From NCBI GenBank assembly GCA_016748015.1, contig JAAOMT010000200.1, forward strand, positions 308,984 through 372,983: a stretch of DNA of 64,000 bases. The letters run 5' to 3'. A program made the position numbers and the translations under genes. Positions 31,209 through 64,000 of this stretch are shown in pieces; the first letter of the stretch is position 1; each line of letters begins with the position of its first letter. The DNA comes from Geosiphon pyriformis uo1. Its lineage: Eukaryota > Fungi > Glomeromycota. Under the pieces are notes generated by a model that did no database searches, was not told the DNA's origin, and saw only the letters and a list, made by a program, of their open reading frames with translations.

Positions 31209-34200
31209 GTATCTTCTATTACTAAACCAATAGCAAAAATAGGAGATTGTGTTGTTATATCTTTTAGAACAGAAAAATTATTCCCATAAAGAACATCAAA
31301 AAAGCTGCAAGCCAAAGAGATTCTGTCTGAAAGAATTTTGGAGAGAACCTTGTAAGCTAGCTCAATCAAAGCAATAGATTAGGTATTTGTAAAAATGTCT
31401 TCTCACTCATATGGTTTAAGAATTATTAAGATCTAAGCCTTTTTTCAAGAACCAGACACTAACTCACAAGTCAAACAAGAGTTTAAAAATACCAAAAACA
31501 TATCCAATACAAACTTGTTATAATGTTTTCACAATTCATTTGAGATGCCAGAGAAACTGACAGTCTTCTCATTAGGCAAAGCAGAAATTACATTAAACAT
31601 TTCATCAAAATTAACCATATACATCACATTTGAAAAAGCATTATCAAAAATGTAATTCAATACTGATAAGACCAATTATTAGAGAGATCAAAGACTACAA
31701 CACACTTCTATGTCCAGTCTTCTATAATTACATTTATTTTTGTCTTGACCTGATTAGACTCCAGAATTAGTTTATCATTAATGATTAAATAATCCAATAC
31801 CACTTTGCAAAAAAGACACTTTAATACATTCTTAATTGTGTAACCCTTGTTCAATTTAAAATTCTCTATCCTTTTATTAATTACTAACCTAATCCAAGAC
31901 TCTTTAGCATGTTTTAATTCTATTATCTTAGAAAAGCAATAAAACTTCTTAACTCTAGCCAGAGTAGACTTAATAACATCAAAATAAGACTTCAAAAGAA
32001 AAAGAGACTTTACTATAGAGGTATTAACAGTATTGAGACTACTTCATGTATTCAATAATAATGCAAACTTATTATAAGACACTTGACAAGAGACCCTAAT
32101 AATCTTAGACACCAAAAGTTCTAGCTTGTGAAATCTGAATGATTTTTTAGTATAAATACTATTATATTTCTTGAACTATTTCTTTCTAAAAACCTTTTTA
32201 GCCAACAACCACACTGTCTTGTAAACAGCATTCTATATTACATCCAAATCTGAGAGTCTTTTAAACACACAGAATTTATTAGAAAACATAGCTATATTTG
32301 CTGCCATAATATTCTTGAACTTGGCTTATTTGGCATTATTAGCACCTTTAAAATTGATTTTTTCCAATGATTCTTGTTTGTTTGTTTGTAAAAGGAATGC
32401 AATTGTGTGTTCAATAATTCACCCAAACTTACTGGCACAGAAACAGCCCAATAATCAATGTCAAAATGTTTATCAATAGACAAGACATTACAATATACTA
32501 TTATATTGACCAAGTTCAAAGAAATAAACACATAATCAATTATTTTTTTGGCATCCCTTAAATTCTTTTATGTGTGATTTTTCTCAACTGAACTCTTTAA
32601 CAAAGAATTAACCAAATCTAAACCACAGCATTTCTTGAAACTAGCACATTTGTATAAATTATCTTTATTAAAATCACCACTTAAAATAATAAAAGAGAAT
32701 TTATTAACAGTTTTAGCTATCGAAAAATTGATTTTATCAGCTTGAAAAAAACAAACAGTTATAAAAGCTCTAGCATAAAGTCTCAAAATTGAAACAGAAA
32801 GTTTATTTTTAAAAAAAAGCTTGACAGAAAAAAGCCAACTGGGTATCTCTGAAATTTTACATATATGTTTAGCCAAAAAAGTATCCATAACAATTGTGAC
32901 ATCAGAACTCTGGTAACTAAAGTCCAAACCAGAAATAAAAACTCAAACACCATTAAATTTGTTAATGAACTTTCTTTTTTAGCTTTGCTTTTGTGAAAAT
33001 TAAAATTAAATTGTTCATATTTTTGTGTTATCAAATAACATCTGCTTGTTTAGCAAAATTGTTTATGCTCTTTACATTACATACAGCCATTTTTTAAACA
33101 AAAATCAATTATTAAGAAAAACGGGCAACAGATATCAAACCAGCATTGTTTACTTTGGTCATTAGGCTCATAAAAGTAATTGAAAAATTGTTCAAGTTAC
33201 TTCCAATTTCGAAATTACAGATTGATCAAAAACCACTACTTTCATAACAATCTTACCACTAGTGGCCACACTTAAATTCTCACTCATTACTATATTTGCC
33301 CCTTGATTCTGTAATAAAAAGATCATTAATAATTGACATTTAGAACTAAGCTGAGAAACTATTGGCCTAGATGTGTCTAATCTCTTAGCCAATTTATTAA
33401 TATGCTCTGCAAGGCTAGTAAGACTGCACTCAAGAGTGGCAAACTTATTATTTAGTTCCATAGAAACCAACAAAATAGGCTTTACCTTTAAAAAAGAGCC
33501 AGAACTCAACAAATTATTACCAATAAAAAAAGAAAGGAAAAAAAATCTACTAACAACTTTTATCTAAGAGATGCTACCAAAAAAAACAGAATAAGCTATT
33601 GATACTAAGTGTTTAGCATAAATGACTGCTAATCTGCTTTTATCTATGTTTAATAGTATCTTGCACAATAGTTTACCAGAGGAAAAATTTCCATTTACAG
33701 AACAGTTTAATAATATATGCTCTATTTTTTTATACTTAGTGCATTTGAAAAAACCCAGTTGAAACTAGCACAGATTGGCACTCTTCAGAACTGAAGTGGT
33801 TCTTATGATGGTATCAAATAATTTAACAGAGTCAAAACACACTATAGCATATTTGAATCGGACATATATAACCAGATAACAATTAATAATACAAGTTTTA
33901 CCACCAACTAATCCAATAAAGTCTTAAATATTATGTATATTTGTTTGTACTGGTAATATATATAACAATGTTTTATAACTATTCTTTGCATCCCATGATT
34001 TTTTGTCCATATTAGTCTTAGCAATGTGAACTGCATCTTTTTTGATTAAAATAGACCACTTTGCTATGACCAAATCAACATAATCTATATTATTAAATTC
34101 AATCACAGCTTTCTGCTACAGTCCTACCAATTGTATTTTGATTGACCTAATAATCTCAAACTTGGAAAATACAGCATACATAGCCTCAGCTAACATTTCA

Positions 34201-35457
34201 ATTGGAATTTTCTTTATTATCACAGTTCAATTTAAATGCTCAGTAGATTTTATAAGATTAGTGTTTACTATAATTTTCATATTTTCGGTTTTTTTAGAAG
34301 TCTGTGCCAAACTTAATTCAGAAATAAATGTTATTCTGATGATTCCAACAAATTTTGAAAGGGTAAAAATCCCTCCAAAATTATTAATTTCTGAAAATAA
34401 TTTTCTAATCATTATATATTTCTTTTGAGATGTTTTTCCAACAACTTTGTCCAACCCAATATCCAAAGCAAAAGATTTGCAAACAGAAATAATAACCAAA
34501 TTTTTTAAGAGAAAAGGGAGTTCTAGTGAAGTATTTGAGAAAACATCATTATTATTACCACTATTTAAGAAATTAATTTTTCCTAACAGTTTATCTAATG
34601 TTTTTTTAATTTTAACACATAAACTTTTAGGTGTCTGATCAAGATTTTTATAATCAAGAGCACTGCCTTTACTATAATTAAAACTGGTCTTTTTTACCAG
34701 ACATTCCTTTTCCATATCAATACTGTCAGACTTGGTAATATCACCAGTCTTTAAATCTTATAAACGACTACTTTGAATCTTAGCCAAACTTTTTTTACTA
34801 TTAACACTATTTTTTAGAACACCACCTCTTCTTTTTTTTTTGACAAAATAATTTTAAAACCACTATTAGAGCCAAAATTTTTAACAGCTTTTTTTATAAC
34901 AGCAATATTAGGACCAATAATAGTCTCATAATTAAGCAAAAATAATTTGAAATTATCATACTGAATGGTAAAAAACTTTTTTCAAAAAACTTTTTTAACT
35001 CTTTTTGAAAATTTTGAATGAGAAAAAAAAAGAAATATTTTGTAATTTTTATATTGTAGTTAATAACTTTATTGGCTATTTAACTAATATTTTTTAATAT
35101 CATATTTTTTTGGCAGTTTTTTTTACTTTAGTTTATATTGTATTATATAATTTATTCTTGTTATATAAATAATGTTGTAGTTTTTTTAGTGTTTTATTAA
35201 ATGTTGTTTTGAATAATATTTTTTTTTTATTTAAATACAAATAAATATTGAATATTAATAAGTTTTATTATATATATTTTTTTGTTTAATATATTAATTT
35301 ATTTATATTTTCTTAATAATAATTTTTATAAGTAAAACATGGTTTTTTATTTTATTTATTATGTTTTTTTAAACAATTGTATTTTTCTTTAATATAACAA
35401 TTATAATAATAGTAAGTTAAATTTTTTGGATTTTTATCTAATATATTGTATATAATT

Positions 35458-36726
35458 TTTTTTTTTTTTTTATGAGTAAAATCCAAATGTAAACTAGTAT
35501 TATACATCATTCAAATGATCTAAACTAGGAGCGAATCATGCTTTTTCTACATGTAACTAGCCACTCAGACCAATCAGAATAACACTAAGCACCTATATGA
35601 ACAAAGACTTTATTATCAATATCAGAAAAAAACAAACAAGACTTGTGAAACCTGAAACCAATATCAAAAGCCTTAGCAATACCCAACAATCTAACTATAC
35701 CAGGGGAAAACAACATAGGAGAACCAGAAACCAAAGCCAAAATAGAGCCATCATGTGGGATCAACCCATTCTTCTCCAAGAAAGCCCAGTGTTTAGCACA
35801 AACCAGCCAAATATTATCCCAAAAGGCGAGGCAAAATGCACGCACAAAATTCACAATGACTGATGTCACAACCTTGAAATCCCCAAAAACCAAAACTGAT
35901 TCATGATACCAATCACCAAAAACAAAGCTCTTGCACAGAGCAGCACCAACTGTAACATTAGCAACACAAGAAGACAACAACCATGAGACACATAAAGAAG
36001 ACCGAACCAAACCAGAATGCATCTTCCAATCCAATGCATGAGCATTTAGCAACTGAGCACAACCAGCAGCATCAAATGGACAAGAAAAAACATGGTCTGA
36101 GACCTCAACATTATTACAAAACAAACACACCACACTGGGATAACATTTATTATATAAATGCTTCCACACAGCAACAGGAAGCTAATAATAAAGAGCTTTC
36201 ATAAAGTACATCCGAAGGCCAGCAGTTCACACATTAGTGAAGCCCAAAGCCAAGTGGGAGTCTGAGTCCCAAACCAGGGAAGACCTCAACCAGTCAATAT
36301 TATCATACAAACAACCTAGAACAACCTGGGAACCAGAACCAACCTCCCAATACGCACGATAGATTGACCTGAATACATTATGAACAAAATGCCTAGAATT
36401 ACCAGAAATCTTACCAACACCAGTCTTCAAAAACCTCTCATTGATTAAATAGAACAGGTGCCAGGCAAAAAGAGCAGCATTCTTAGTAAGCGCATCAGCA
36501 TGCTCATTGCCTGAAATGCCTGAATAGCCCTTAATCTTAATCCAATTAACATCCAAATTTTTGTGACAAATAATATTGGCAATGTAATGATGCTCAATCC
36601 AACAACAATTCCTGTAATCAGAGCCAACCAATAAAGACTCTAACCTGCAAGCATCTAACACCGCCTGGCTGTTTGAAAACAAGTCAACTGAATGAAAAGA
36701 AAAAATACACTCAAGAACTAAAGCAA
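35458..36726 (-). mobile_element. LINE copy E, 5'-truncated within RNase H
   Basis: RNase H C-half, CLFC..EVSDHVFSC, 3'UTR and poly-T near 35458-35471; TSD GTATATAATT at 35448-35457 and 36727-36736. Confidence 0.93.
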
Positions 36727-36739
36727 GTATATAATTATA

Positions 36740-39700
36740 AACAAAAATTTTTTTTATCAGATAAAATATTCTAATTTTGGCTTGTATTATCAATTATTTT
36801 TTTTGTAGTAACTGTTATTTATTTAGATTTTTATTTATTTATTTAAGTTAATATAATTGGTAATTCAAATTTTTTGTTATTAGTCTATAAAAATTGGTAA
36901 GTTTTAAAAACTATTAAAATTGGGTTTTTTTATATTTAAAAGTGAGTTTTTGATTGATACTAGATTTTTAAAAATAGTTATAAATAATTAATATTCTTAT
37001 ATAGTGGCTATTGTAATTAATAAAAAGTTTTTATATAATTTAATTTAGTATAATATTGGTTTTTATTAATTAATTATTACTTATTAATATTTTTATATAT
37101 ATTATTATATTATTAATTTCGAAAAAACAAGTTAATTTCATTATAAAACAACTTAATATTTTTATTAAACAATATGATTTAAGATATTACAATATAATCA
37201 ATTGTAAAATCTAGTTAATTTATTAGTTAAAACATTATAATATTTTTAATAGATCTATTATTTAAAATAAATTTAATTAGAATATTGTTTATTTTTATTT
37301 TTGTATATATAATAATAATTAAATATTTTTTATTTATATTGTTTTTTAAATATAACTTTATTTTTTTTATTTTAAAAAGATAAATAACTGTAAAGCTATT
37401 ATTTTAATAATAATTACTAATAATATAGTTTAATTTATATTTTGGTTTTTATGTAAATTTTTAATTTGGTCATATTTTTATTATTGTTATTTTCAAAATT
37501 TGAATTTTTTAAAATATTAAAATAAATAGATTAAAAGTTCTGATAATTGTAATTAGCTTGTTAATTAAAATTTTACATAATTAAAATTTTTAAAAATTAT
37601 TATGTTTTAACTTAATATTAATTAACTTTAAAATTTTAAATACCAGTTTAAATTAGAAATTATTGTTTATTGTTAATATATTCTTTAATTTTGATATTGT
37701 TTTAATATTAGTTTAATAAAAGTAAATATTAATTTTTAGATATTTGTAATAATACATAATAATTATTTTTATATGTTTTCTATATTATTTATATTTAATA
37801 TTAACTAATTAAATATTTTGCATTTATAATAATAATAAGTACATATTTTTGTTTTATAGTTTTAATATAATAAGCAATTTTATTGACTGTTATTAAATTT
37901 TTAATTGTGTTTTTAAGGTGTTTAATAAGTATTGTTTTTTTTAAAAGTTTTTTTTTTTAATTATGATACTTTTTTTTAATGTTTCTATTTTATTTTTTTT
38001 ATAATTATATTAATTATTTAATTATAATTAACTTTTTTTTTAGTTAATTTAAGTATTTTAATAAGATAATATTTACAAAGTTAAATATTATGACTAACAA
38101 ATTTTTGTTTTTGTTTTTTTTTTATTAATGTTAATAATTAATAATATTTATTGAATTTTATTAAGTTATTAAGCATAAAAAAAAATAAGTCTTAATAAAA
38201 GTTTTAATAAATATATTTTTTATAATATAAATTTTTGTTATTATAATATTATTATATTTGATAATTACTATTTTTTAAATTTTATTTTATTATATAAGTA
38301 TTTTTTTAGTTAGATAAGAATGTAATTATAAATTGCATTCAATAAAATTCTCTTAAAAATCTAGTTATTAATAAAAATTGTGTATTAATATAATTTATTA
38401 CATGTTTTTTCTCTTTTTAAAATATTGTTTTATAGTTTTTATTAAACAAAGTTTTTTTACAAGTAAAATAAAGTATTTTGTTTTATTTTTTTGTTATTTT
38501 AAATAACTAAACGGTTTTAATACATATAAGTAACAGTAAAATTTGGTTTTTATTGAGTATTTTTTTATTATTATTATAATAAATTCTTATAAATAAGAGT
38601 TTTTTTTTTATAATTAATACAAATAAGTTTTGGTTATTAATAATATAAATTTTTTAAAATATTATATAAATATTAAACTATTATTGTAATATTGTTTTTT
38701 TTTATTTGATAATATATAAATAAAAATATTAACTTAAAAATTTTTTTTTTAGCTTTAAAATTTAATATTAATAATAAGTTAGTTTTAATATTATTAATTT
38801 ATAAAACTTGGTAAATTTTTATTGTTAACTTTTTATTAAGTTAATAAGTATTTGTTTTAAAATATTTATATATTAATACTTTTACATAGTATTTTTAGTA
38901 ACTTAATTAAAGCTTTTAAATATTTTAATTAAATATAATATTTGTTTTAGATAGTTAATTATTATCAATAAATTCTTAATACTGAATAGCTTTTATAATA
39001 AAAATTCTAATTAGTATAATATTATTAACTTTAAATAAAAAGTTATTAATTTTGTTAATTAAAATTTTGATAATTTTATTAGCAATAATAATATAAGTAT
39101 TAACAATATAATTAATACAACAATATAATTAATTTATAAACTATTATATAATAATATTATTTATTATATTATTATTAAAAATAAGTTTAATTAATTAACT
39201 ATTAACTTTAGTATTAATAAATATAATAATAATGAATTTGTTAATATTTAAAACAGTTTTATTAAAAAAAAAATTATTTTTATTTTTCAATTTAAAAAAA
39301 AAACAACAATAATTTTTAATAATAATTATAAGTAAAATATTGTTGTTATTAAATAGTTAATTTTTAATTATAATAAAAAAACTTAAATAATTCTAGAAAT
39401 TTAAAAACTGTAATTGTTTATTTTCTAAATTTTTAACATATTTTTTATTTGTAAATTAGAAATATTAAAATTAATTGATGAGTAATTACTGTTAATTGTT
39501 AATTTTATTAAACAATTTTAGATTTTAAGTTTTAAAATTAAGCCAAAAATAGTTGTTGTAGTTAAAATTGTGTTTATAATACTAGTTTTTAAGATTGTAA
39601 ATAAGTAATTTGTAATTTTAATTAAAAATATGACAAGTAAACTGGTTAAAATTGTTGTTAAAATATTGTATATAATATTATAATAGTTAATATTATTTTT

Positions 39701-39750
39701 GTAAAGTTCTAAATCCATAATTTAAAATTTGTAATTTGTAATTTAAGTTT
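36740..39750 (-). pseudogene. Ghost Gypsy gag/protease/pol region (protease clearest at ~38870-39245)
   Basis: Minus strand reads KFIIIIFINTKVNS*LIKLIFNNN..IIIANKIIKILINKINNFLFKVNN..KAIQY*EFIDNN*LSKTNIIFN*. This is colinear with the protease at 49500-49860 (KTITTMYTKATVERKPI*LILNSG..IVTADNIKKTPVEEIDNFLFTIDE..QYQALVRNDWLLKTNTNLDW). Confidence 0.7.
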
Positions 39751-39816
39751 TAATTTTCTAATTATTAGTTGTTTAGTTAAAAGTAATAATTAATTTTGAT
39801 ATAATTTTATTTATGG

Positions 39817-40630
39817 TATTATTTATATAAAAAAACAAAAAATAATAATAGCTTAAAATAATTAATAATAAATAAAAAATTATTAGAACATATAATATTA
39901 AAAATTTTAAAAATTTTAAAAATATTAGCAAAAATATTAGAGATTTTAGAAATGTTAAAAATTTTAATAATAACTTAAAAAAATTAAAAAAATTAAAAAA
40001 ATTTTATATTATAAAGATTTATATATATATAATAAAAGTATTAAAAATTAAAAGAACAAATATATTAAAAATCAAACAAATTTATTTTAATCTTTATTAT
40101 TATTTTAACCAAATTATAACTAATTTAATAAACATATTAATTAAATTATATTTAATATTATCTATTTATAAATCCTAATTTATCTTGTTAAAATTTAAAT
40201 ATTTTTTATATTAATACTATCAACATTAAACATATTAACTTAATAATACTAAAACAATAGCTTTTAATCATAACTATTAATAAAATATTAATTTCTATTT
40301 TTATTGTTTTTATTGTTTTATTAATTGATTAAAAAAATTTTAAGATTATAATATTAAAAATTACTTGGTAAAAATTCAAAAAAAAGTATAGATATAGTCA
40401 TAAAAACTAAAATTGCTTACTAAAAAAATACAAATACCAAAATAAACTAATTATTAAGTTAAAAAAAACATATACTAAATATTATTTATAATTATATTAA
40501 ATCTCTATTTATTATATAAAGAGCTTTATTATTAAAACTTTTAAAATTTTCAGATTATAACAACTATTTACTAAAGCATTAAGTTATAAAACAACCAATT
40601 TATCTAAAAAATCTACTTATAAAAATAACA
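39817..40630 (+). mobile_element. Ghost solo LTR of the family A lineage
   Basis: TATTA...TAACA ends; flanks ATGG/ATAA (decayed TSD); remnant periodic array at 39890-40000; motifs CAATAGCTTTTAATCATAACTATT, TTACTTGGTAAAA and TATTAAATCTCTATTTATTATATAAAG occur in the same order as in LTR 1-624. Confidence 0.7.
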
Positions 40631-42211
40631 ATAATTATAAATTCGGGTTTTTAGCTATTATAATTAATTAGATAATAAAAATTATAACTAATTTTAAGAA
40701 TAATTGCTATTTTAACTATTTTTATATTATTGTAGTAATAGATATATAACTTGATTATTAGTTAAATATCTATTAATTTTTTGATTAATATTATTATTGA
40801 GCTGTTTTAATTTAATATTTAATTTAAATATTTTGTTTATAATTAATAATAATTTAGATATAATTAGTTTTAAACTTAACTAATTCAAAATTTTTTATTA
40901 ATATAATTGTTGTTTAAAAATTGTCTAAATAAACTGGCTGTATTTATTAAAAAATGTTGTTATACAATTTTTTGATAACTGATTTGAAATTTAAAATATT
41001 ATATAGTATTAATATTAATAACTTAAATTTAATATAAATAATAATAAAAATATTTTAAGTAAATAATAATTATTTTATTATTATTTTGTTAATTAATATT
41101 AAAATACTTTTATAATTAAATAATATTATTGTAATCATTAATATATTAAAAAAATACAGTTTTAAAATTATTTAATAATGTAAATTTAGTGATAAAACTT
41201 TAATAATATGAATTAACTGTATTTTACAACAAATATAAAATTGTTTAAAAAACTTTAGTATTATTTTAATTATTAACAATAATGGCTTTTTATATATTAT
41301 TTAATTAGACTTAAACATTATTTTTTTTGTTAGTAAATTTTTTTAATTTGGTAATTAGAGTATATACTATTAATATTATAAGTAAAAAAAGATATATATA
41401 TTATAGTAAAACTATAAAAATAAATAATATTAATAGTAAATTTATTAGTATAATTAGATTTATTAGATTTTAAATTAATTTTAAAGTTTTAATTGCCAAA
41501 TTTAAGATATAATTAAGTTTATAATAAGATTTTTTTTAATTGTTTCTTAATCTTAATTTTTTTTAAATTTAATGTTTTTTTAATTACAAATAAAATTAAA
41601 ATTAAGTTTTGGTAATAAAAATTGTAATAATAAAAAATTGATAATTTTAACTAAAATTTTTCAAGAAATTCTTATATTTTTTTAATAAAATATTATTTTT
41701 AAAATAGTTTTAAAAGATAAGTTTGGATTTTGCTATAAACATAAATATAATTTTTAATAGAATTTAAATAGTATTATTAAATATATAATAATATAATAAT
41801 TTAAAGATAAAATAACTTAAAACTTATTTTTACAAAGATAAAACTATTTATTTAAATATGACTACTAAAATTTATATTAATAAATTAAACTAATAATTTT
41901 CTGTAATAAGTAAAAAATTTTTTTTAATATATTATAAATTTTTAAGTAAATTTTTAATAGAATACTTACAAAATTATAAAATTAATAATAATTAGTGTAT
42001 TCTTTAATAACTTTGTAAAAATCAAGTTTTATAATTTTTATATTAATAATTTTCTCTAAATTATGTTTAATTTTTTTATTAATATAGAAATTAAATATAA
42101 ATTTTATTGGTAAATAATTAATAAATAATTTTAATTTTTTCTAAAAATGTTTATATAATGTTTTTATAAATCTCAAATAATTAGTTTTTATAAATTTTAA
42201 TTTTGCTACTT

Positions 42212-42961
42212 TGTTAATTATTATTAACTAGTGCTTTGTTTTTTGTAAATTATATTTTATAAAAAACATTAAATATTATAGCTAAATTCTAAAGTTTTTG
42301 GAATTTTTTATAATTTGGTATTTAATTTTATTGGATTATTAAATTAAAAATTTATTTAAAGATTTTAATAATGAAATCTTTTATATAATAGACAAAATTT
42401 TAATATAATAGTTGATAATATTTAGTATTTAATTTTTTTAGTATAATATTTGGTTTATTCTAATGTTTTTTATCTTTTTGATAATTAATTTTAGTTTTTT
42501 AACTATAATTTATATTTTTTTTAATGTTTTTTATTAGACAATTCTTAATATTATAATCTTAACACTTTTTTTTAATTAATTAATAAACAAAATAAATAAA
42601 CAATAAAAAAACAATAAAATAAAAATAAAAATTAGTATTTTATTAATAGTTATAATTAAAAGCTATTGTTTTAATATTTTTAATTATATAGTATTAATAT
42701 AATTAAATTTTAATAAATTAAGTATAAATTTAAAAACAATAGTTTAGATATAATAAATTAATATCTTTATTAAATAATAATTAATGTTAAATATTGAATT
42801 AGCTATTAAATTTTGTGATAAAAGAAAAAACTAAACTTGTTTTTAATTAAATTTGTTTATTTTCAAGATAATTTGGTTTTTTATTTTTAATATTTCTGTT
42901 ATATATACATAAATTTTTGTTATATAAAATTATTAATATTTTGTTTTCTATATAAATAATA
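42212..42961 (-). mobile_element. Ghost LTR of the family A lineage, inverted relative to 39817-40630, with the U3 array largely missing
   Basis: The reverse complement contains TATTATTTATATAGAAAACAAAA, AAAACAATAGCTTTTAATTATAACTATTAATAAAATA and TATTAAAATTTTGTCTATTATATAAAAG. The left boundary is uncertain. Confidence 0.6.
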
Positions 42962-43185
42962 ATAATTATTAACAATAAATATTGGAAAAACTTTCTCTTG
43001 TTAATCTTCTGTTCATGACAAGAGCAATAAAATTTGTCGAAGATATAGCATTTTTCCTTTTATTTTTTCTTTCACCTCTTTTTTCGTTAGTTATTTCTTC
43101 AGATACTTTTATTTTTGTTATTATGGAACCTGTGAGCACATCTGCTGATGGTTCTAGTGCTAGTACAACTGGTTTGGGAACCCAT

Positions 43186-43992
43186 TGTTACCAGAGGTTT
43201 TTGGTCTCTTTTCTTGAATATTGTTAATGTTGATTTGCTGTGAATTTATGTGTTCTAGAAGTAGTTAAACCTCCAATAACTGAATTTATCTTCAAATTAT
43301 TTCCTATAATTTAAACTGCTGGGCTTATAAGTAGAATGGCCAATTCCTTGCCAGTTACTTTATGTAGTTACATTGTAGTAAATGTTAACTCTTTCCCAAG
43401 AATTGCTTGTCTGAAAGCTCACTAAAAATATGTAATTATTTTGCTGTAAAAGTTAACTCTTTTACAGAAATCTTGTCTGTAGGCTACTCTAATAATTTAA
43501 GAATTTGGTTTTCAAATATTTTAATTTTTATTTGAATATGTAAAAGGTGATTTGTTTCAATTAAGATATCTAAAGTAAGATACTATAGTAAGATACTATA
43601 AGAAAATACATTTTTTTGAAGAGAGAAGCTCTTTTTTTATACAACTTGTTGTAGTATTAGTCTTTGAACTTGCACTTTTTTTTTGCTCCAATTTCGGTGA
43701 ACTAAAGATACATTTTGGTGAACTACAAGTTATTTCCACGAATTATTGATTATTTCGGCCAATTTTCTATTAATTTCAGCGAATTTTGACTATATTAAAT
43801 GGTTCAGGGTATTGTGTAATTTGATCATCTTAATTTCTATAATACAAATCGGATTATTGATTGAGTAATGATATTTGATAATTTAATTAAATAATAAGTG
43901 ATAATCGAAATAATAATAATATATGCTAATTAATAATAGGAATTATGAGGGTAATTTCATGCTAATTAATAGCTAAAATTCTATTGGTAACA
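43186..43992 (-). repeat. 3' LTR (807 bp)
   Basis: About 94% identical by manual count to 51946-52906, apart from a 153-bp indel; preceded on the minus strand by the PPT TTTTAAGGAGGAGATTA. Confidence 0.96.
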
Positions 43993-44680
43993 TAATCTCC
44001 TCCTTAAAACTGAGCTCCGTCAAAGTCCAAGCACTATCTGTAATATTAAGATAGTAATCCAAGATAATTGAAGTAATCTGGTCCAAAAATTGTTGAAATT
44101 TTGGTTTTGTGAGCTTTCCAATGTATTGAATCTTTATTGGATGGAGTATTGGGTTTTGTAAGACATTTTCACAAGTGTTGAATAAATTATAGAGTCTAAA
44201 TGCTGCTTTAAGTTTATAGTGAGTGTTTGTTAGTCTAGCTATTGTCTTGAATTCATTGTGAATTTGTTTTTGTATAGCCTTACGAGTAATGTTGGTTGCT
44301 TCAAGTTCTAGTTTTCGTTCATAAAGTGTTTTTCCAATATGAAAATATCTATATATAAGAGTATGTTCATTGTTCTGTTCATTGAGGAGTAATAAAAGTT
44401 TTTGTTGCATTGTGGTATTTGGTGAAATGTTAATAAGGGCAGATAAAAGGTTTTTTTTTAGTGCTTGCTTCAAAAGTTCTGGTAATTGATTTCCAAAGTA
44501 ACTTTTTGTTTTTTTTCTATAGGGGTGATAATTCTGAGAATTATTTACTACTGGGGCTGTGATTTTTTTCTGAATGTAATTAATTTGACTTCTATTAATT
44601 ATTATAGATAAGTTAAGAAGTGTTTTCAAAGCTAACATTAATTTTTGGGATATTTGTTGAATATTTCGGGGAATAATCAT
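43973..44680 (-). CDS. Accessory 3' ORF of Gypsy family B, 235 aa, function unknown
   Basis: Uninterrupted ATG-started ORF between IN and LTR, running through the PPT; homologous to 61740-62591. Confidence 0.75.
   Translation of the reverse strand: MIIPRNIQQISQKLMLALKTLLNLSIIINRSQINYIQKKITAPVVNNSQNYHPYRKKTKSYFGNQLPELLKQALKKNLLSALINISPNTTMQQKLLLLLNEQNNEHTLIYRYFHIGKTLYERKLELEATNITRKAIQKQIHNEFKTIARLTNTHYKLKAAFRLYNLFNTCENVLQNPILHPIKIQYIGKLTKPKFQQFLDQITSIILDYYLNITDSAWTLTELSFKEEIMLPIEF
43993..44009 (-). promoter_or_regulatory. Polypurine tract
   Basis: AAGGAGGAGATTA directly abuts the TG of the 3' LTR. Confidence 0.88.
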
Positions 44681-44859
44681 GATAAAAATGACTAACTAAT
44701 AAACAAAAATTTGAAAAAAGAATAAAGAAAATTATTTTTGGGTATAGGGTTTTTATTTGTTTTTGGGTTTGAATGTTTCTTCTAATTATTTACTATTTTT
44801 GATTTATATTTTGTGTATTTTGAAGAGGTTTGTGAAAATGTTAAATTAAGTGTTCAAGT

Positions 44860-46230
44860 TTGGTTATTGTTCTATTATAATTATTGGTTCTAAATTTCGG
44901 AAAATATTTTCAGAATTAATTAAAGAGGAATGTATACCAATTTGTAAAATTAATGGTTCAGGATTGTTTCTAGAGTAATAGTGTTTCAATTGATCTCTAT
45001 GTGCAACTTTTGCTAGTACTTTGTCATTAAGTCTTAATTTGTATGATCTATTGCCTAGAATTTCGTAAATATAAAATGGTTCATCCCATTTATGTTCAAA
45101 TTTTCCACTCCATTGTTTTTCAGCCTTATCTCTGTGTAAGAGAACTTTATTTCTAACTTTAAATTTGTTGATAACTAGTGGCAGTTTGTTGTTATGTCTT
45201 TCTTTTTGTAGGGCTTGGAAGTGTTTAATATAAGTGGCTGCTATGTGTTTTTTTCCTTCTAATGTACTAAGGAGAGTGTAGACTCTTCTTTGGAGTGTTT
45301 TTTAGAAGTTTTTTTCATTGATTGGTTGCACTGAATATGTTTTCACTGTGAAATTAATTGGTAATATTGCTGTTCTTTTATAAGTAAGATCAAATAGTAT
45401 GTGTTTCATAATATCTTGTTTTAGTGTTCTGTATGCTAATAATACTAATATAATAAAGATATCCTATTTCTGCCCAAAATCTGTTAAGACTTTGGCTAAA
45501 GATTTACACAATGTTCTGTTGAACTGTTCTACAAGTCCATTTGTTTGAGAGTGATAAAGTGATGATAAAAGTCTTTTGACATTAAATCGTTCACAAATTT
45601 TTTGTATCAAGTTGTTCACAAAATGTGTTCCTTAATCAGATAAAAGTTCAATTGGGCATCCATGTCTACAAATAATGTCCTTATAAATGAAATTTGCTAT
45701 TGATTTTGCATCTGCTCTTTGAATGGCTCTAGCTTCAGACCATTTGGTAAAATAATCTACTGCAACTGCAATATAACAATTTCCTTGAATTGTGATAAGT
45801 AATGGTCCAATTAAATTAATTTCAACTCTGTCAAAAAGTTGTCCAACTTTGATTGGATTTAAAGGTTCTGTGGAACAAGTTTCTTTTCTTCTTTGACAAC
45901 TATTACAAGATTCTACATATTGTCAAATGTCTTTTTACATGTGAGACCAAAAATAATGTTCAAGAGTTTTTTGAATTGTTCCATCTCTTCCCAAGTGTGC
46001 TAAAGAAGAATCTGTGTGCATGTTGTATAGAATTGTTTTTTTCTCATTTTCTTGTACTAATCTGAGTGATTGGTTTGGATTTCTGTGATTTTTGTAATAA
46101 ATTTTGTTGTAGTATATGAAATATTGTTTGGATTGGTGTTGTAATCAATGTTTTTTACTTGAAGACCAATTTTTTGGTATGGTAAGAGTTTCCAAATAGT
46201 TTTTAAGATTGTTGTAATTTTTAGAATCCA
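44860..46230 (-). pseudogene. Integrase (HHCC, DDE core, GPY/F-type C-terminus)
   Basis: HTDSSLAHLG..CNSCQRR, AVDYFTKWSEA, LLSD*GTHF, YHSQTNGLVEQFNRTL, FKVRDKVLL..KWDEPFYI; stops present. Confidence 0.92.
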
Positions 46231-46339
46231 TTGTTGTTTTGTTATTTGTTGGTAAGTTAGAAAGTTGTAGTGAATTTGTTGATATTATTAATCTTGTCTC
46301 ATTCTTGAAAGGCTATCAACATTGGTATGTAATTTTCTT

Positions 46340-47650
46340 GATTTGTGGTATACAATATATTTGTAATCTGCTAAGAAATCATTCTATCGAGACTGTTTGG
46401 CACTTTGTTCAGTTTTCTTTTTATTGAGCCATTTGAGACCAATATTGTTAGTTATGATGTTAAATTCTTTTTTATTCTTTAAATATTGTTGAAAATGTTT
46501 AAGAGCCCAAATGACTGTGGCAGCTTCTAATTCAGTTGAGCCATATTTGAGTTTTGTTGGCTTGAATGTTCTACTGACATAGACAATGACTTGTTCTTGG
46601 CCATTTTTATCCAATTGTGATAAAATAGCACCAAATGCTATATGTAAAGCATCAGTGGCTAGTTGAAATTGTTTGTTGAAATCTGGATAAGCAAAAACTG
46701 GGGCTGTTGTTAATTTTGACTTGAGGGTTTCAAAAGCTTTTTGTTGTTCTTCAATCCATTGGTATGGCATGTTTTTGTTGGTAAGATAGTTGAGTAGTTT
46801 GGCAATTTCTGAGAATTTTTTTATGAAATTTCGATAGTAAAAGACTAATTCTACAAATTCTCGTAGCTCTGTAGTATTTTTGGGGATTTGAAAGTTTTTG
46901 ACAGCATTGATTGTTTCAGAGTTTGGTTTGACTCCATTTTTGCTAACAATGTGCCCAAGAAAGATTAAACTTGTTTTTCCAAAGTGACATTTCTCAATAT
47001 TCAACTTCAATTCTGCTTTCTGTAATTGTTAAAAAACTTTTCACAAGTGAATAAGATGAGCTTCAAAGCTTGGTGAATATACATTAGTGTCATTAAAATA
47101 AATAGCTACTGATTGCCACAAAAGTCTTTCATATACAACATCCATGAGTTATTGGAATGTTGTTGGTGTATTGCAGAGTCTAAAAAGCATAACATTGAAC
47201 TCATAGTTTCCTTCTTGGGTGGTAAATGCTGTTTTGGTTCGATCTTTTAGGTTCATTTCGACTTGTCAGTATCCACTTTCCAAGTCTAAAGTTGAAAAGA
47301 ACTTGGCTTTTTTAGAGCATCTAACATGTCATTAATTTTTGACAGAGAGTAGGTATCTCTAATTGTAATACTATTCAGTTGTCAATAGTCAATACAAAAT
47401 CTGATTTTTCCGTTTTTCTTTTTGACAAAAACTACTGGTGAGGCCCAAGGACTTCTTGATGGTTAAATTAATCCGTTATTGAGCATTCTTTAGATCTCTT
47501 CTCTAATAAATTGGTGGCTAGCAGATAAAACTTGATAGGCTTGTTGTTATTTTGGTGGAGCATCTTCTGTGTGAATCTAATGTTGAACAATATCAGTTTT
47601 TCCAAGATTATTGTTGTTTTTTGCAAATATATCTGCAAATTCAGCTATCA
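46340..47650 (-). pseudogene. Gypsy reverse transcriptase and RNase H
   Basis: SPWASPVV, FCIDY, KTAFTT, VAIYFND (decayed YLDD), KCHFGKTSLIFLGH, ATDA, TELEAA; stops and a frameshift. Confidence 0.93.
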
Positions 47651-48131
47651 GTTGTTTCAATTGTCTTTGTTGTTGGAGTTTCAAGAGACCTATGTTGATT
47701 CAAGAGAGTTTTTTTTCTAACAGATAATAGTTTTCAGTAGTAGGAATGATGTTTAGATTTGGAAGTAGTGTATGTCTTATAATTTCGATGAAATTAAAAA
47801 CAATTTAAGGGTTTTCATTTTGAAAGATGTTACTGTGTATGATTTCAATCTCTAGTTTGTTTAATAAGACAATGAAGTAATTATTGGGATTGTAGAATAT
47901 AATTCAGAATTTTTTCATTCCTTTGGGAATATAAACGTTTGAGATTGAGATTTCATGCTTTAAACAGATTTGTTTATTGGATTCAAAGATTTGTTGGGTA
48001 GTAGTGGGTTTTGAGCAAGTGTAAATTTCGTGATGTTTACCAAAAAGTGAAATAGTGATTGGTTAGAGAAGTTGAAGAATCTGGTAAGATTCATTCTGTG
48101 TATTGAGAGCTATGTTTACTGGTACTGTAAA

Positions 48132-48565
48132 TCATCCAGTTGAACCAAAACCTTGCATTTCTCTTTCACTTTTTCCCAATTGTTTTCTATTGTTGACTGA
48201 TTGTAGACCTAAAATGTTGATTAAGGATAGGTAAATTGCTTGGGCAATTTTTTCAGCATGTTCAATCCTAAATGGTTTGTCTGTTTCATTCTGTAGCATA
48301 ATAGTAATGTCTCCAGTATATCTTGCATCTATAACTTCTCTTCTAATGTTAATTTTTTTGCTTGCCAATGATAATCTGGATGCAATTTAAACTATTGCTT
48401 CAGGTGGAATTTCAAGAGCAATTTTTAGATTGATTTTTGTCAAAGACTTTGGTTGGAGAACCAAAATATCTTTTTCTGAGTATCTTAGATCATTATTCTG
48501 TATTAATCTCATGTGCTTTTTCTGGTCTAATTCTTTGGCCATGGTTGTCGAAATATTTAAGTTGT
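48132..48565 (-). pseudogene. dUTPase (trimeric type) domain within pol
   Basis: Five motifs are recognisable: E*DLR (GYDL), SRLSLASK, VIDARYTGDI, EKIAQ, EREMQGFGSTG. Confidence 0.9.
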
Positions 48566-49449
48566 AGAGTTAATTGATTTTCAAGAAAATAGATAGGAGT
48601 AGTTGGTAGTTTTTCTATTAGTTTAGGTACTCCAAATTCGATTTCATTCTCATCATCCTTATCTGGCAGGAGAATGCTAAGAGCATAGCATTCTAAACAC
48701 CATTGGTTATCACAAAACATAACACATTCTTCATATAATTGAATGTTCATTTGCTCTAATAGTTGAATTTGAGCTTTTTTGGTTGGATATGTATGACTTG
48801 CAATTTGGTGGTAGGTTTTTACTTTATCTTCATAATCAAATCCAGCTAATTCCATGATATACTCAATGTATTCAGCTTCTTTCATTTGGCAGACATCTTT
48901 TTGTGTGGCTTTATTGATTAATGCCATTGCTAAGTCAAAAATTATTTCAGCATCATGAGGATAGTAGTAGAGTTTATTAAGAGTATTGTTATATACTGCA
49001 TCAAAGGGTGTTCCTCTTTTCACTTTTTTCGAAATTGATAGAGCATATTGACAGATTTGATCGCATACTTCTCCTCTTATTGCAACATCAATTCAATTGT
49101 ATTCTTCAAATAGCATATCTTTACATGTAAGGCAAGGTGTATTGTCCTATTTCCCACTTCTTCTTGAGAATTCAAATTATTTTCTATGGTATGCTTTGCA
49201 GAAGTAGCAGGTGTGAGTTTCATATTCCTCTTCTGGAGAAATACAAGCTCCCATAGCTGAAAGTTTCTTCTTGCAATCTTTGTATTTTAGTAGAATATAT
49301 GGTGGTTCTGGTGTAGAATATCTAACTTTCTTCTATCTTCTTGATTCTTTAAAAATCTCTTGTTCTGTTTCCTCAGCCTAATTGGATGTTAATTCAAGAG
49401 CCATATAGGTTTCAGTGAATGGTATTTCTTTCTTCTCTTCAAATTCAAA

Positions 49450-50399: not shown

Positions 50400-51900
50400 T
50401 GTTTTGTTAGTCTCTCTGTAATTTCCTGCAATCTCGTTTCCAGTGTCCTGAAATTCCACAATAATAACACTTTTGAGGTTGGTTGTTGGGTGGCAATCCA
50501 AAATTGTTTTGGTTGCATTGTTGTGATGGTTGATATCTTTGTGGTTGTTGTTATTGTTGTTGTTGGTTTATAAAGTAGCTTTCAACCTTCTTTGTGAGTT
50601 GGTCTATCTTCTTTTCAACTGCTGAGCTGGTTTTTCCAATAGCTAGATTGACAAGTTTGGTATGATTTGCTTCTTCTATTGCCATTTCATAGTTTTTTGC
50701 ATGTCTAATGGCAGTTGCTAAGTCTGCTGATGCATGTGAATGAACTTTTTTAATGAATTTGTCTTTTAATTTTGCTATGAACTGATCCAAAATTTGGGCA
50801 TTGGAATAGTATTCATTGGTTTCCAATTGTTGAATTTGTTGAAAAAGTTTATTAAATCTCCCAAGATAGGTCATAACAGTTTCAGATGTTTCTTGCTTAA
50901 TATTGCGAAAGCAGTTTCTGAGAGTAATAGAGGTGTTGTTGTCAATGAATTGTTGTAGAAAAGCATCTTTAAATGCTTGTCAGTTTTCAAATGATTCTTC
51001 TAAGTTTTTAAACCATTCTTCTGCAGTTCCTTGAAAAAAATATGAGATTGTTTTAAGCATTCTTGCTGCATTCCAACCATTTGCATCTTCTGCTTTTTGA
51101 ACTTTGTCAAGCCATTTTTAAAGGCTGGTATTATTGTTTTCACCAGTGAATTCTGGGATTTTTGCAATATAAGCAGTTGCCATTTTTTCTTCATTTTTTG
51201 TAGTTTTTTCTTGTTCTGATTCAGTTTCTTTACTTTCTAAGTTTTCTGGATGATTATTTTCGTTTTCTTGTAAGTAATCAATAATATTAGTGCTTGTTAA
51301 TATGGGTTCTTGCTATTAAGTAGGATTTTTAGGTAACTAAAAATCTTCTGGTCTGGAGAAATGGTTAAGTAGTGAATTTGGTGTTTGTAGTCAAGCAAGT
51401 GAAATTGAAAATGGTGTAATAGAAGGTGGTAATTTGACACTGGTTCTTTGTTCAGGTGTTTGCAAGTGTTTGGCAGTTGTTTTTGGTAGTATTAGAGTAT
51501 TTGGAGTGGTTCTTGAGTATTGTTTCACTTTGTGTTTGCTTTTGTTGCTTGTTTCTGTTTCTAATTCAAAGTCAAGAGAGTATTTGGACTGTACTGGGTA
51601 TTTTTCTTCACAATACTCAATAATGTTAAAATTAAGTTTTTGGAAGTAGGTAGCAAGTGTTTCATTGTTCAGGTCTTCTGTTCTCAATTGTGAATAGTGC
51701 ACTAAATTATTGTAGAGATTGTTTCTAACTTCTGAAATATTGTAGTTTTCAAAAAGATAGTTGTTGATGCAATTTTCAATGTATTGGTATACTGATTTCT
51801 TGACAACTTCAATTCCATCTGGGATGTTAAATCTTTGCTTGTAGTGAGTATAAATTGACTGATAATACTTTAGAGTTGTTGTGTTTGGTGTGATTATCAT
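50400..51900 (-). pseudogene. gag: N-terminal extension, capsid, CCHC nucleocapsid
   Basis: IPEFTGE..WLDKV..ANGW, AFKDAFLQQF, IKQETSETVMTYLGRF, and CYYCGISGHWKRDC at ~50425-50470. Confidence 0.9.
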
Positions 51901-51932: not shown

Positions 51933-51945
51933 GGAGAGCACCAAA
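51933..51945 (-). promoter_or_regulatory. Primer-binding site TT-TGGTGCTCTCC (cognate tRNA ends ...GGAGAGCACCA; identity not determined)
   Basis: TGG begins 2 nt after the CA end of the 5' LTR. Confidence 0.82.
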
Positions 51946-52906
51946 TGTTACTGGAGGTTTTTGGTCTCTTTTCTTGAATGTTGTAAATGTTGATTGGCTG
52001 TGAATTTACGTTTTTTAGAAGTAGTTGAACCCCCAATAACTGAATATATCTTCAAATTATCTCTTATAATTTGAACTGCTGGGCTTATAAGTGGAATGGC
52101 CAATTTCTTGCCAGTTACTTTATGTAGTTACATTGTAGTAAATGTCAACTCTTTCCCAGGAATTGCTCGTCTGGAAGCTCACTAAAAATGTGTAGTTACT
52201 TTGCTGTAAAAGTCAACTCTTCTACAGAAATCTTGTCTGTAGACTACCCTAATAATTATAATAAAAAAATAAAAAAAATGTAAAAAAATAGAATTTTATC
52301 AAGGAAAACGTTTTCTATCCAGGCCTGAAGTCACTAACAGTTTATTAAAATTGGTAGCTAATCAATTTCAAACCATTAGTTGTGTTGAAAGAATTTCAAG
52401 TGTAATAATTTAAGAATTTGGTTTTCGAATATTTTAATTTTTATTTGAATGTGTAAAAAGTAATTTGTTTCAATTAAAATATCTAAAGTAAGATACTATG
52501 GTAAGATACTATGAGAAAATACATTTTCTTGAAGAGAGAAGCTCTTTTTTTATACAACTTGTTGTAGTACTAGTCTTTGAACTTGCACTTTTTTTTTTGC
52601 TCCAATTTCGGTGAACTAAAGATACATTTTGGTGAACTACAAGTTATTTCCACGAATTATTGATTATTTCGGCCAATTTTCCATTAATTTCGGCAAATTT
52701 TAACTATATTAAATGGTTCAGGGTATTGTGTAATTTGATCATCTTAATTTTTATAGTACAAATCGAATTATTGATTAAGTAATGATATTTGATAATTTAA
52801 TTAAATAATAAGTGATAATCAAAATAATAATAATATATGCTAATTAATAATAGGAATTATGAGGGTAATTTCATGCTAATTAATAGCTAGAATTCTATTG
52901 GTAACA
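51946..52906 (-). repeat. 5' LTR (961 bp) with TATA-like TATAAAA (~52554-52548) and an upstream 20-21-bp repeat array
   Basis: Direct repeat of 43186-43992. Confidence 0.96.
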
Positions 52907-55900
52907 CCATCTAAATACAAAAAAGAAGCATGTAGACACTGTCTATTTTTGTGGTGTATTCTACAAAAAATTGAAGATACTAGTAATTGGTAATGTAGTT
53001 GACTTATCTGCTGGTTCTCTGAGCTTAGAAAATATTGGTGTTGTTGGTGTCAAACCTGTGGTGTTCTGGGGAAATAATGTTGGCAGCATTGCAAATAGTA
53101 TTAGTGGACTTTTTAATGTCAAGAATATGAAAAACACTGTTGCTAAAGAAATAAGTTATATAGAGTTAGATAATTTAGTAAATGATAAAAACATAGACAA
53201 AACAACTCCAAAGAAGACTTGCACATATACATATGTGTTAGACCACTTCTCCTAAAGTGCCTTTATATAATAACATGAGCAATAATGATAAGGTCTTAGA
53301 ACTTCTTTCTCCTAAATTCAATGGGTCTAATCAGTTGTTACCATTCAAGTTATGTGTATCGGAAAAATAGAGTTTCAATTCGGCTAAGTCATTTGCACTT
53401 AATATTGAACTCTTTACAGTGTCTGGTAAAACTGTTAGTGATAAATTAATTTCTGTCAAAAAAATCTTCTATCATGTAAATGGTTTTGGGAGAGCTTTAA
53501 CTCTCTCAAAATTTCCAGGAATTATTAGATCATTTTTTACATCTGAATTAAGTTTGGAAAAGGCAAAGAAATTGGCTATCAGTGAGAAAATTTTGGTCAA
53601 TAATAATGTTAAGCAGATAAACAAATGCACAAATTAGAAAATTGTTGTGAAAGAGATTCCAGTGGATCTTTTCAAATTAGCTGTGGAATCTGTTTTTTCT
53701 AAATTTGGCAAGATTGTCTTGATTAAAATGTAACTGATTGGTCTTTGGCAAAAGGCCTTAGTAGAGTTTAAATTATTGAATATAGCTAGTTTGGTTGCTT
53801 CCAAATGATCAGTTTTCATGAGAAAAAATTTGGTGCATGTGACTTTGGCTGTTAGTGACAAAGAATTATGGATAACAAAGAATTATCATCAAGCTTTTTT
53901 ATATACCCTTTCAGTTGAAATCACAGCTTATGATTTATCTGATTTGTTGAACTCATATAGTAGAAAAACTTGTTTTATTGGCCATAATCCTAGTTTATAT
54001 GTATGTAATAGATGTGTAATAGTGTGTTTTACTAATAAGATATCTAAATTGGCTGCTGTTGGTTCTGTTTCTGTTTTTAAAGATGTTAATTTACATTGGG
54101 CTGGGCTTTTTTTGGCCTGTTATGCTCTGTGTAAACAATTTGGTCATGTTTTTAATGTTTGTTCAGTAGGTAAGAATTCTGGTGGTTATAGTAGGTGTGT
54201 GGTTATTTCTTAGGATCAGATTTGTTTGGCCAACATATATAAAAAGAAGCAGACTCCTGTTACATGTTCTGTTTTATTTGGAGATAAAACTTGGGCTTAA
54301 ATTGCTGGTGGTTTTTTCTTTCATGCAATCTTGTCAGTTTTGTCTGGTGGTGGTTCACCTCCAGATGTAGCATCTTTTTTTTTGGGTTTTGCCTTTTCTG
54401 TTAATTCTGGATTGAGTAATCATGTGGCTGTCTTAGAACAATTTTTGGAGCTTTTGTCTGATCAGGTTTCTGTTCTTTTGAAGAAGTTGAGCTTTGTGGA
54501 GTTAGTGTTTTTGACTGTATTTTCTTCCACTCTCCCTTTAGTTGTCTCTGTTTTTTTAGTTTTGAATATGGTTTTGGATAATATGTTAGTGTTATCCACT
54601 CTCTCTTTCTTTGTTAGTTCAGATTTGGTGGCTGATTTCAGTTCTAGTAATTCTAAAATTCTAACCACTAAGATAGGTAGATTAAAGTCGAAAATAGTGG
54701 CTTTGAAGACATTAATTAATTTGGTTTTGGAAAGATTGAATTGTTTGTGTTCTGGTTTGGGTTCTTCATCTTAATAACCAGTTTGGTTTGGAAAATTGCT
54801 ATATGCAATGCTCAGAATATGAACAATCCTACAAAACAAGAAGATATTATTTATTGGCATAAGAATATAGGCAATTTGATTTTGATCATTACTGAAACTA
54901 AGTTGAAAGGTAAAGTTTATCCATAGATTGCTAATAAATTCAATGGTGTCTGTGTTTTTACTTCTGATTTAGACTCTGGTTACTTGGGTTCTGGTATTGC
55001 TATTATTATGGACAGTTTTTTGGCTTGTTATGTGTGCAAAGTTTCTGAGGTGCCAGGTTAGCTTTTATCTGTTAAGTTGCTTTTCAAAAATAAACTTTTT
55101 GTTTTGATTTTGGGGCTCTATGCTGGCACTTCTTTGGCAGTTCATCTCTTTTAAGCTGGTAAAATCAACTCTTTGATTGCAAGAACAGTGAACAAATCTT
55201 CTTTTATTGTCTTGAGTGGGGACTTTAATGAAGATGGTTTGTACAAATGTGCTAGTTTTAAGAAGTGTCTCAATCTAGAGTTGGTAAATATTTTGTTAAA
55301 TAGTTCAGTTACAAGAAGTTCTACATAGAAAAATTCTAGAGATGCTGAAAAAACAATAGATTATTTGTTCATTTCTTATAATTTAGTTAATACAATAGTG
55401 AGTTGTGATGTTTTGGATGTCAATGAACACTTTGACACTAATTACCAAGTGGTCTATGTGTCTGTAGGTTTGGGTGGACTTTTGAATATGCAGTTAAACT
55501 CTCTTCACAACCAAGTGAATAAAGATCATTGGAAGTTTAACTTCAAGTATGCTGATAAAGCAAAGTGATGCAGATTTAAGGAGTCAACAACAGCAAATGC
55601 TGCAATGTTCTCTGATGAGTTTTTTGCATCTAAAGAGTTTATGAATCTGGATACTATGTGAAATATTATTTGCAAAATAATATGTTTCTCGACAAATGAG
55701 ATTTTCAAAAAAAAATGGTTCAAGAGTTTTGATAACATTTATACCAAGAAGTCTTCTAGGTTTCATAAGTTAGAAATTTTGGTGTTGAGAATAGTCAAGT
55801 CTTTACATGGAAGTGTTGATAGTATGTTCAAGTTTTTAATGAGCTGCTTAACTTCTCTGGATTTTGATAAGGCTTTGTCTATTCAGACTCTGTTAAATTC

Positions 55901-60604: not shown

Positions 60605-60631
60605 TCTTTCTCTCGTCAATCCCCTGGCTGC
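60605..60631 (+). mobile_element. First ~27 bp of another LINE 5'UTR, cut by the Gypsy insertion
   Basis: CTTTCTCTCGTCAATCCCCTGGCTGC aligns by transitions to the 5' ends of copy B (CTTTTCTTTTGTTGATCTCCTGACTAC, ~4655) and copy F (CTTTCTCTTGTTAATCTTCTG, 42991). Confidence 0.65.
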
Positions 60632-63930: not shown

Positions 63931-64000
63931 GATTAGGTTTGTGGCATCCTCAACAAACTGTCGGCATTGGTGTTCTTAGATCCTTCCTTGTAATGGACTT

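Follow-up and report, generated by a model that had tools for sequence, protein, structure and literature searches.

Long terminal repeat (LTR) retrotransposons can carry extra open reading frames (ORFs) downstream of pol, and such additions have been reviewed in general terms in the accessible part of PMC6431247. As far as the available portions of the papers describe them, the third ORFs (ORF3s) of bdelloid rotifer LTR elements are of env, GDSL esterase, DEDDy exonuclease, coiled-coil or transmembrane types (PMC5408684), and fungal Gypsy elements can have an "add. ORF" of unknown function and a dUTPase between protease and reverse transcriptase (RT) (PMC2864245). Two regulators encoded by mobile elements or viruses are also relevant here, again according to partly accessible texts: the VANC proteins, which act against silencing and are encoded by the Mutator-like VANDAL transposons of Arabidopsis (PMC5735166; PMC10398659), and foamy-virus Tas (Bel1), a retroelement-encoded activator of its own LTR (PMC8670036; PMC4929722). 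We analyzed a 64,000-nucleotide stretch of the Geosiphon pyriformis genome (contig JAAOMT010000200.1; hereafter the window, with positions counted from its first letter), in which a 235-codon sense ORF at 43973-44680 on the minus strand lies downstream of the integrase in a complete Ty3/Gypsy element that we designated B. This ORF, which we call ORF3, is very probably a selected accessory gene of Geosiphon-type Ty3/Gypsy elements, and our results support the initial annotation insofar as it had seen here a conserved accessory gene of Gypsy elements that is not env and had not been described.

Element B lies on the minus strand and is bounded by direct LTRs with TG...CA ends, at 52906-51946 (5') and 43992-43186 (3'), with a 4-bp target-site duplication, ATGG. 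The order of gag, protease, RT, RNase H and integrase was found in B (the RT itself was identified by eye), the full series being gag, protease, a Cys-rich insert, dUTPase, RT-RNase H and integrase, and then ORF3. The integrase (44864-46231, minus) is a separate ORF with its own ATG, matches H2C2, rve and SH3_Tf2-1, and contains six stops; an AT-rich spacer (44681-44863, minus) leads from its stop to the ATG of ORF3. A second element, A, lies at the right edge of the window, where it is represented by the end of its RNase H, an integrase (62555-63922, minus; with its own ATG past the RNase H stop, with 12 stops and with 50% identity to the B integrase), an ORF3 (61740-62474, minus) and a 3' LTR (60631-61725, minus) with a degenerate array of 10-nt period in its U3 region at 61480-61647. 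The A copy of ORF3 has 244 codons from its likely ATG, with two in-frame stops, and ends just before the polypurine tract (PPT). Its extent had been given as 61740-62591, which is not upheld, as the start is most likely at 62474, where the other gene models of family A begin.

The two ORF3s are clearly homologous, with a tblastn match of E=3e-6 (34% identity over 128 residues) and a local alignment score of z=13.8 that was equaled in none of 1000 shuffles. The motifs by which the initial annotation had linked them were found in both, including "ITD", which is not kept in metagenome members of the family, and the shared C-terminal domain it described is present, but the homology also takes in the N-terminal part and hence the whole length. 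The LTRs of A and B had been described as dissimilar beyond their termini, and in the window they did not match at E<=0.01 apart from one 30-nt T-rich segment shared by the 5' LTR of B and an A-type solo LTR. The placement of the gene between integrase and PPT is right for family A; in B, by contrast, ORF3 passes the PPT, and its last 20 nt lie within the 3' LTR, whose start is at 43992.

Our ORF3 search returned 203 homologues among 620 candidates, and of the best 120 of these 203, 119 are annotated as hypothetical proteins of Geosiphon pyriformis, the remaining one being the gene model of the window itself. HMMER, run over 1.84 billion representatives, gave 33 hits, none of which pointed outside the ORF3 family, the four most distant being two metagenome proteins (P0146 and P0149) and two members of Geosiphon family C. 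With a profile there were 57 hits among 2863 candidates (55 Geosiphon and 2 ENA proteins), and with a core-only profile 111 among 1273, all of them Geosiphon proteins or the window's own model. In IMG/VR nothing related to ORF3, to the integrase of metagenome locus L001 (described below) or to the PPT junction pattern turned up, and tblastn of ORF3 against phages gave only E>=0.4. The 282 fetched proteins that carry the ORF3 domain are nearly all annotated as hypothetical host genes; the Geosiphon ORF3 gene models should therefore be masked as transposon-derived, since these proteins fill the catalogue as host genes. We recognized six lineages, four in Geosiphon pyriformis (B1, B2, A and C) and two in metagenomes (M1 and M2), with 73% identity between B1 and B2 and 21-36% between every other pair. 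The majority sequences of the six are identical at 16 columns and keep the same residue class at 28 more, and the frame is maintained at 230-244 codons across lineages and is open in the metagenome members. ORF3s of B2, M1 and M2 read through the PPT into U3, as that of B does. An unrooted tree of 15 rows placed A with C (support 95/95) and M1 with M2 (100/99), with long branches meeting centrally.

Wherever sequence context was available, as it was for A-type and B-type members and for a metagenome locus, ORF3 was linked to a Gypsy integrase. Locus L001 (3.7 kb), the only confirmed metagenome locus among 277 pattern matches, contains RT-RNase H, a stop, an integrase that starts at an ATG of its own, a spacer of 316 nt, ORF3 (P0149), a PPT and the start of an LTR; by sequence, the nearest solved structure to its RT-RNase H is Ty3 RT (E=6e-47). 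More than 40 extra N-terminal residues were present in 35 of the 282 proteins, and 26 of these 35 extensions hold a piece of integrase that is always of the matching family (A-type in 16 of 16 cases and B-type in 10 of 10), while one gene model carries an integrase piece on the C-terminal side of ORF3. Such fused models are predicted genes of decayed elements, and they document adjacency, not transcripts. In A, B and L001 alike the RNase H frame ends in a stop, a short CA-rich spacer of 10-56 nt follows, and the integrase then begins from an ATG of its own (junctions at 46231-46320 and 63920-63935 in the window and at 741-801 in L001), which indicates that the integrase is a separate cistron outside the Pol polyprotein. 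As the integrase and ORF3 each have their own ATG, the element RNA would be polycistronic and an unusual route of expression would be needed. A splice acceptor shared by the lineages ahead of ORF3 was sought by eye, and a pyrimidine tract with AG immediately before the ORF3 ATG was present in B only. Among A, B and L001, identity is 50-53% for the integrase and 21-31% for ORF3.

The initial annotation had stressed that the B copy of ORF3 is open while gag/pol is full of stops, and the counts bear this out, with no stop in 235 codons against 40 in 2313 codons of gag/pol. At the gag/pol rate 4.1 stops would be expected in ORF3 (P about 0.02), a value that is post hoc because B was picked for being open; we take the open frame as weak evidence, only modestly unusual. 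ORF3 of A has two stops where 6.4 are expected from the A integrase (P=0.045), and A and B jointly have 2 against 10.5 expected (P about 0.002). The window copy of B departs from the family majority at 16% of residues (family mean, 11%) and lacks the otherwise invariant Gly149. Compared with the contigs of run X1, it showed 10 replacement and 4 silent differences in ORF3 and 13 replacement and 6 silent differences in the integrase among the best-supported sites listed, this comparison covering the best 40 of 275 differing sites, 33 of which fall within ORF3 or integrase. The invariant Pro53 is altered in 18 of 41 B1 and 20 of 54 B2 open copies, and departures at conserved columns gave a mixed result, at 0.49 of expectation in the 41 B1 open copies (P=0.035) and 0.86 in the 54 of B2 (P=0.31). 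The two LTRs of B differ at 46 of 802 aligned sites, 42 of the differences being transitions, six of these at CpG, and the observed/expected ratio of CpG is 0.19 in element B and 0.21 in L001. We read the genomic ORF3 copies, the window's included, as mostly decaying, with selection having acted mainly in active ancestors; the joint stop deficit of A and B is left unexplained by this.

Evidence on selection also came from run X2. Runs X2 and X3, whose type was guessed, contributed 16 and 2 contigs with no informative joints, and one X2 contig that spans codons 120-227 of ORF3 differs from the window copy at 43 sites, 38 of them listed. Among these 38 differences, 22 are at third positions and 21 were counted silent, where random transitions would be expected to give 35% (P about 0.007); in 13 of the 16 codons with replacements it is the window copy that deviates from the B1 majority. 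The one testable pair thus gave a silent-site excess instead of a dN/dS near 1, and together with frames of 230-244 codons kept across lineages more than 60% diverged, this excess supports purifying selection in active ancestors.

AlphaFold2 predicted an all-alpha core of eight helices for residues 62-216 (44033-44497, minus; pLDDT 88.7, pTM 0.83), in line with the helical protein initially proposed. The N-terminus was modeled with low confidence as an alpha-beta-beta arrangement (an amphipathic helix and a hairpin) followed by a linker; residues 1-67 mostly have pLDDT <50, and for residues 37-67, all below 50, the low value may also be due to a shallow alignment. Searches of Pfam, PHROGs and NCBIfam gave no ORF3 match above cut-off, the scattered PHROG matches (best E=7e-4) coming from two of nine members with the lineages in disagreement. 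The PDB searched by sequence with two profiles gave E>=0.79, Foldseek against the PDB and viral models found nothing at E<=0.001 (E>0.2), and the best Z in a VIA structure search was 5.2-5.7, with 5.4-5.5 for the helical core. A confident match to a characterized family was accordingly found neither in Pfam nor in the PDB nor by fold. Given a confident helical model with no structural match, the predicted core may be a new fold, although an absent match is not proof of one. The closest candidate domain was DUF1016_N (PF17761, the YhcG N-terminal domain), which has in common with ORF3 a short Y-x-x-I-G helix motif. Only 8 of 65 aligned members matched it, weakly (best E=0.0028, 18.2 bits against a cut-off of 32.8), and hhalign against 70 YhcG N-termini aligned 13-14 columns with probabilities of 0.7-1.7%, which did not surpass those of controls that were reversed or block-shuffled, so we rejected it.

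The protein had also been called basic, and this copy is so (pI 9.83); however, pI is 6.3 and 6.2 for the column majorities of B1 and B2 and lies between 5.2 and 5.9 in the metagenome members. Single A and C copies, likewise decayed, have pI 9.2-9.7, and across 95 open copies the change seen most often is E>K, from which it appears that the high pI of the B copy is largely due to G-to-A decay. Within the protein, Pro53-Tyr54 (44519-44524, minus) is identical in all six lineage majorities despite lying in an indel-rich, length-variable linker of low model confidence, whose net charge is +3 to +5 in eight of eight proteins. The accessible part of PMC2408616 gives R/H/K-X2-5-PY as the motif of PY-type nuclear localization signals (PY-NLSs), and this pattern fits eight of nine representatives, with all six lineages covered. 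Judging from these linkers, ORF3 may be imported into the nucleus through a PY-type signal.

Because ORF3 is fast-evolving, probably nuclear and situated beside the 3' LTR, we tentatively suggest that it might act as a nuclear LTR transactivator or anti-silencer, by analogy with foamy-virus Tas or VANC. Under this scheme ORF3 would form a cistron by itself, with translation from the ORF3 ATG via a subgenomic RNA or reinitiation, and the protein would be imported into the nucleus through the conserved basic-x-PY linker; its helical core would then bind the family-specific U3 repeats of its own LTR, and ORF3 bound to that DNA or chromatin would promote transcription against host methylation silencing. 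Each lineage whose LTR is known has its own short U3 repeats: their period is 10 nt in A, the units of B measure 13 and 20 nt, and L001 has a TTCTTAA-type unit. Binding of the core to such repeats would explain why ORF3 diverges faster than the integrase and why the LTRs share nothing. The CpG depletion of element B and L001, given above, would suit a methylated element, and in Rhizophagus, a related fungus, CG methylation and small RNAs are reported at transposons in the accessible part of 10.1101/2021.03.30.436303. A bolder version, which we consider doubtful, is that ORF3 is a sequence-specific anti-silencer with a new helical fold that reads the U3 of its own lineage, was selected while pol was dying and aided the LTR expansion of Geosiphon; its selection on ORF3 during the death of pol draws on the joint stop deficit of A and B.

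A number of observations weigh against our interpretation of ORF3 as a selected nuclear gene directed at its own LTR. None of eight C-family models contains an integrase piece, and the selection test is one pair with 38 of 43 differences over ~85 codons and no codon-model estimate. The U3 repeats are weakly enriched, as the top 7-mer was reached in 17 (B), 36 (A) and 7 (L001) of 300 shuffles (in 1 of 300 for the solo LTR), and U3 repeats are common in LTRs of elements that have no such gene. With decay discounted, ORF3 as a whole is not basic (pI 5.2-6.3), so the argument from overall charge for a nucleic-acid-binding regulator, made in the initial annotation, fails, and in the M1 lineage (P0146 and P0167) the net charge of the core's first half is 0. 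Neither Foldseek nor VIA returned a DNA-binding fold. As for the putative import signal, the window copy of B does not have the strict basic-X2-5-PY spacing, PY is kept in just 96 of 176 near-full-length decayed copies, and the motif appears in 8-16% of shuffles of any single linker, so that its weight lies in its conservation.

Several other functions might be considered for ORF3. It could work on RNA, binding the element transcript for export or for reinitiation at the integrase and ORF3 starts, or suppressing small-RNA silencing, and we regard such a helper as a serious possibility if on balance an unlikely one. The polycistronic layout, with separate integrase ATGs in A, B and L001 and an ORF3 ATG of its own, calls for just such unusual expression, and the caulimovirus translational transactivator is a model for a reinitiation helper; on the other hand, the CA-rich spacer before the integrase ATG could permit reinitiation unaided, and our family searches matched no RNA-binding domain. 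The putative import signal is also compatible with an RNA-level role, Hrp1p and Nab2p being RNA-binding proteins. Both are among the PY-NLS cargoes given in the accessible part of PMC2408616, and the targeting of Rhizophagus transposons by small RNAs, mentioned above, would suit a suppressor.

A role of ORF3 as an integration or particle cofactor is likewise unlikely, though not far-fetched; in it the protein would import the pre-integration complex or, standing in for the missing chromodomain, anchor integrase to chromatin. Both scanned integrases, those of B and L001, end in SH3_Tf2-1 and had no match in the Pfam scan to a chromodomain, the mark of chromoviruses at the integrase C-terminus, and the NLS-like motif of ORF3 and its pairing with its own family's integrase in the fused models would fit this role as well. 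However, ORF3 diverges far faster than the integrase (21-31% against 50-53% identity), and many Ty3/Gypsy elements without a chromodomain work without a third gene.

More doubtful is the view that ORF3 arose by capture of a domain of some larger Mucoromycota protein family and has been retained for host benefit or an unrelated function, with no regulatory role in the element; homologues unlinked to Gypsy elements were one of the refuting results named in the initial annotation. The ESM Atlas did place the core of P0149 nearest to two Mucoromycota clusters (scores 0.95 and 0.94, with 176 and 174 of 256 shared features), but these scores come without an alignment and are uncalibrated for parts of proteins, and a whole protein (P0001) scored only against unrelated Atlas clusters. 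The HMMER result given above likewise contains nothing outside the ORF3 family, and the matches listed from word-seeded searches were Geosiphon proteins, the window's own model and two ENA proteins. That ORF3 is envelope-like, or serves spread from cell to cell, is highly improbable: the sense orientation between pol and 3' LTR would allow it, and rotifer elements do have small ORF3s with transmembrane segments (accessible part of PMC5408684), but the maximum 19-residue hydropathy is 1.44 in B and 0.44-1.29 in six relatives, which agrees with the lack of a transmembrane segment noted initially, no signal peptide or furin site was evident by eye (no signal-peptide predictor was used), and the predicted fold is soluble and helical with no match among viral structures.

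That AT-rich sequence or cis-signals near the PPT merely produced an open frame with chance similarity is refuted for residues 1-215 by full-length homology at 21-36% identity, hydrophobic periodicity, open metagenome frames, the silent-site excess and the confident fold, and holds for the C-terminal tail alone. The final 12-15 codons overlap the PPT and the LTR start, and the GGAGCTCA box with the PPT (43996-44018, minus, in B) is conserved as DNA in B, A (one mismatch) and L001 although the reading frames differ, A and B included, which makes the tail a by-product of the cis-signal.

The remaining parts of element B, all on the minus strand, follow the 5' LTR (51946-52906), of which ~150 nt (52260-52410) are missing from the correspondingly shorter 3' LTR (43186-43992). 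A putative primer-binding site (PBS) comes directly after the 5' LTR at 51934-51945, and a U5-PBS hairpin was not significant (z=-1.16). The segment 48502-51900 encodes gag (Retrotrans_gag, Ty3_capsid and zf-CCHC), protease (RVP_2) and the Cys-rich insert. The gag frame has its own ATG and ~240 codons (51181-51900) ahead of the capsid domain with no Pfam match, and the insert, of ~300 residues (48500-49400) between protease and dUTPase, gave no Pfam match at E<=0.01. The dUTPase domain (47802-48470; PF00692, E=1.6e-14) lies between protease and RT and is followed by ~110 residues with no match, and RT-RNase H (46288-47801) has one frameshift and a stop before the integrase.

Elsewhere in the window, the A-type solo LTR (30208-31208, plus) carries the U3 array of A and sits inside a non-LTR element with a 4-bp duplication (one mismatch). 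At 31158-31169 (plus), ~40 nt from the end of this solo LTR, 12 nt are perfectly complementary to the putative PBS of B; the copy in the 3' LTR of A (60682) has one mismatch. From the sequence, this complement may reflect LTR-PBS pairing or self-priming. Several decayed copies of a non-LTR element, 65-73% alike, occupy 1-11650, 23940-24740, 27090-36730 and 53385-59720, one of them interrupted by the solo LTR; endonuclease-like and RT-like motifs were recognized in them by eye, and RNase H (PF00075) is the C-terminal domain. A Gln/Ser/Asn-rich stretch at 17618-19006 (plus), which ends at the apparent start of a C2H2 zinc finger and has no Pfam match, is a probable host gene exon. Blocks of ~10% G+C at 12000-13000, 22000-27000 and 37000-43000, some mutually alike and including an inverted pair (39953-40545 and 42355-42974), look like fully decayed repeats.

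We found no description of the ORF3 family in the accessible literature, a coverage that leaves aside subscription papers, Repbase, Dfam and supplements (e.g., additional file 1 of PMC2864245), and the available parts of PMC3248453 and PMC11952901 do not mention such a gene; the family is apparently undescribed so far. Striking LTR expansions are reported for Geosiphonaceae and Ambisporaceae in the accessible part of PMC11952901, and ORF3, being present in expanding Gypsy families, is a concrete and assayable candidate for their cause. Like the additional ORFs of rotifer and fungal elements, as far as the available texts describe them, it is a separate ORF downstream of pol, and a dUTPase between protease and RT also occurs there. 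None of the rotifer ORF3 types is matched by the Geosiphon protein, and the fungal "add. ORF" was set beside it by description only, from the accessible part of PMC2864245. Unlike these, the Geosiphon ORF3 stands behind a separately encoded integrase and is kept across lineages with ~50% integrase identity.

The likeness to VANC lies in an extra transposon gene, family-specific short non-coding repeats and a host that likely methylates its transposons. VANC belongs to a plant DNA transposon (VANDAL, Mutator-like), whereas ORF3 belongs to a Ty3/Gypsy retrotransposon, and no Pfam or structure match links the two (VANC sequences were not directly compared). The gene for Tas adjoins the 3' LTR, as does ORF3, but no homology to Tas was detected and no env gene precedes ORF3. 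If ORF3 should indeed be a sequence-specific anti-silencer, it would extend the principle of VANC and Tas to the LTR elements of fungi.

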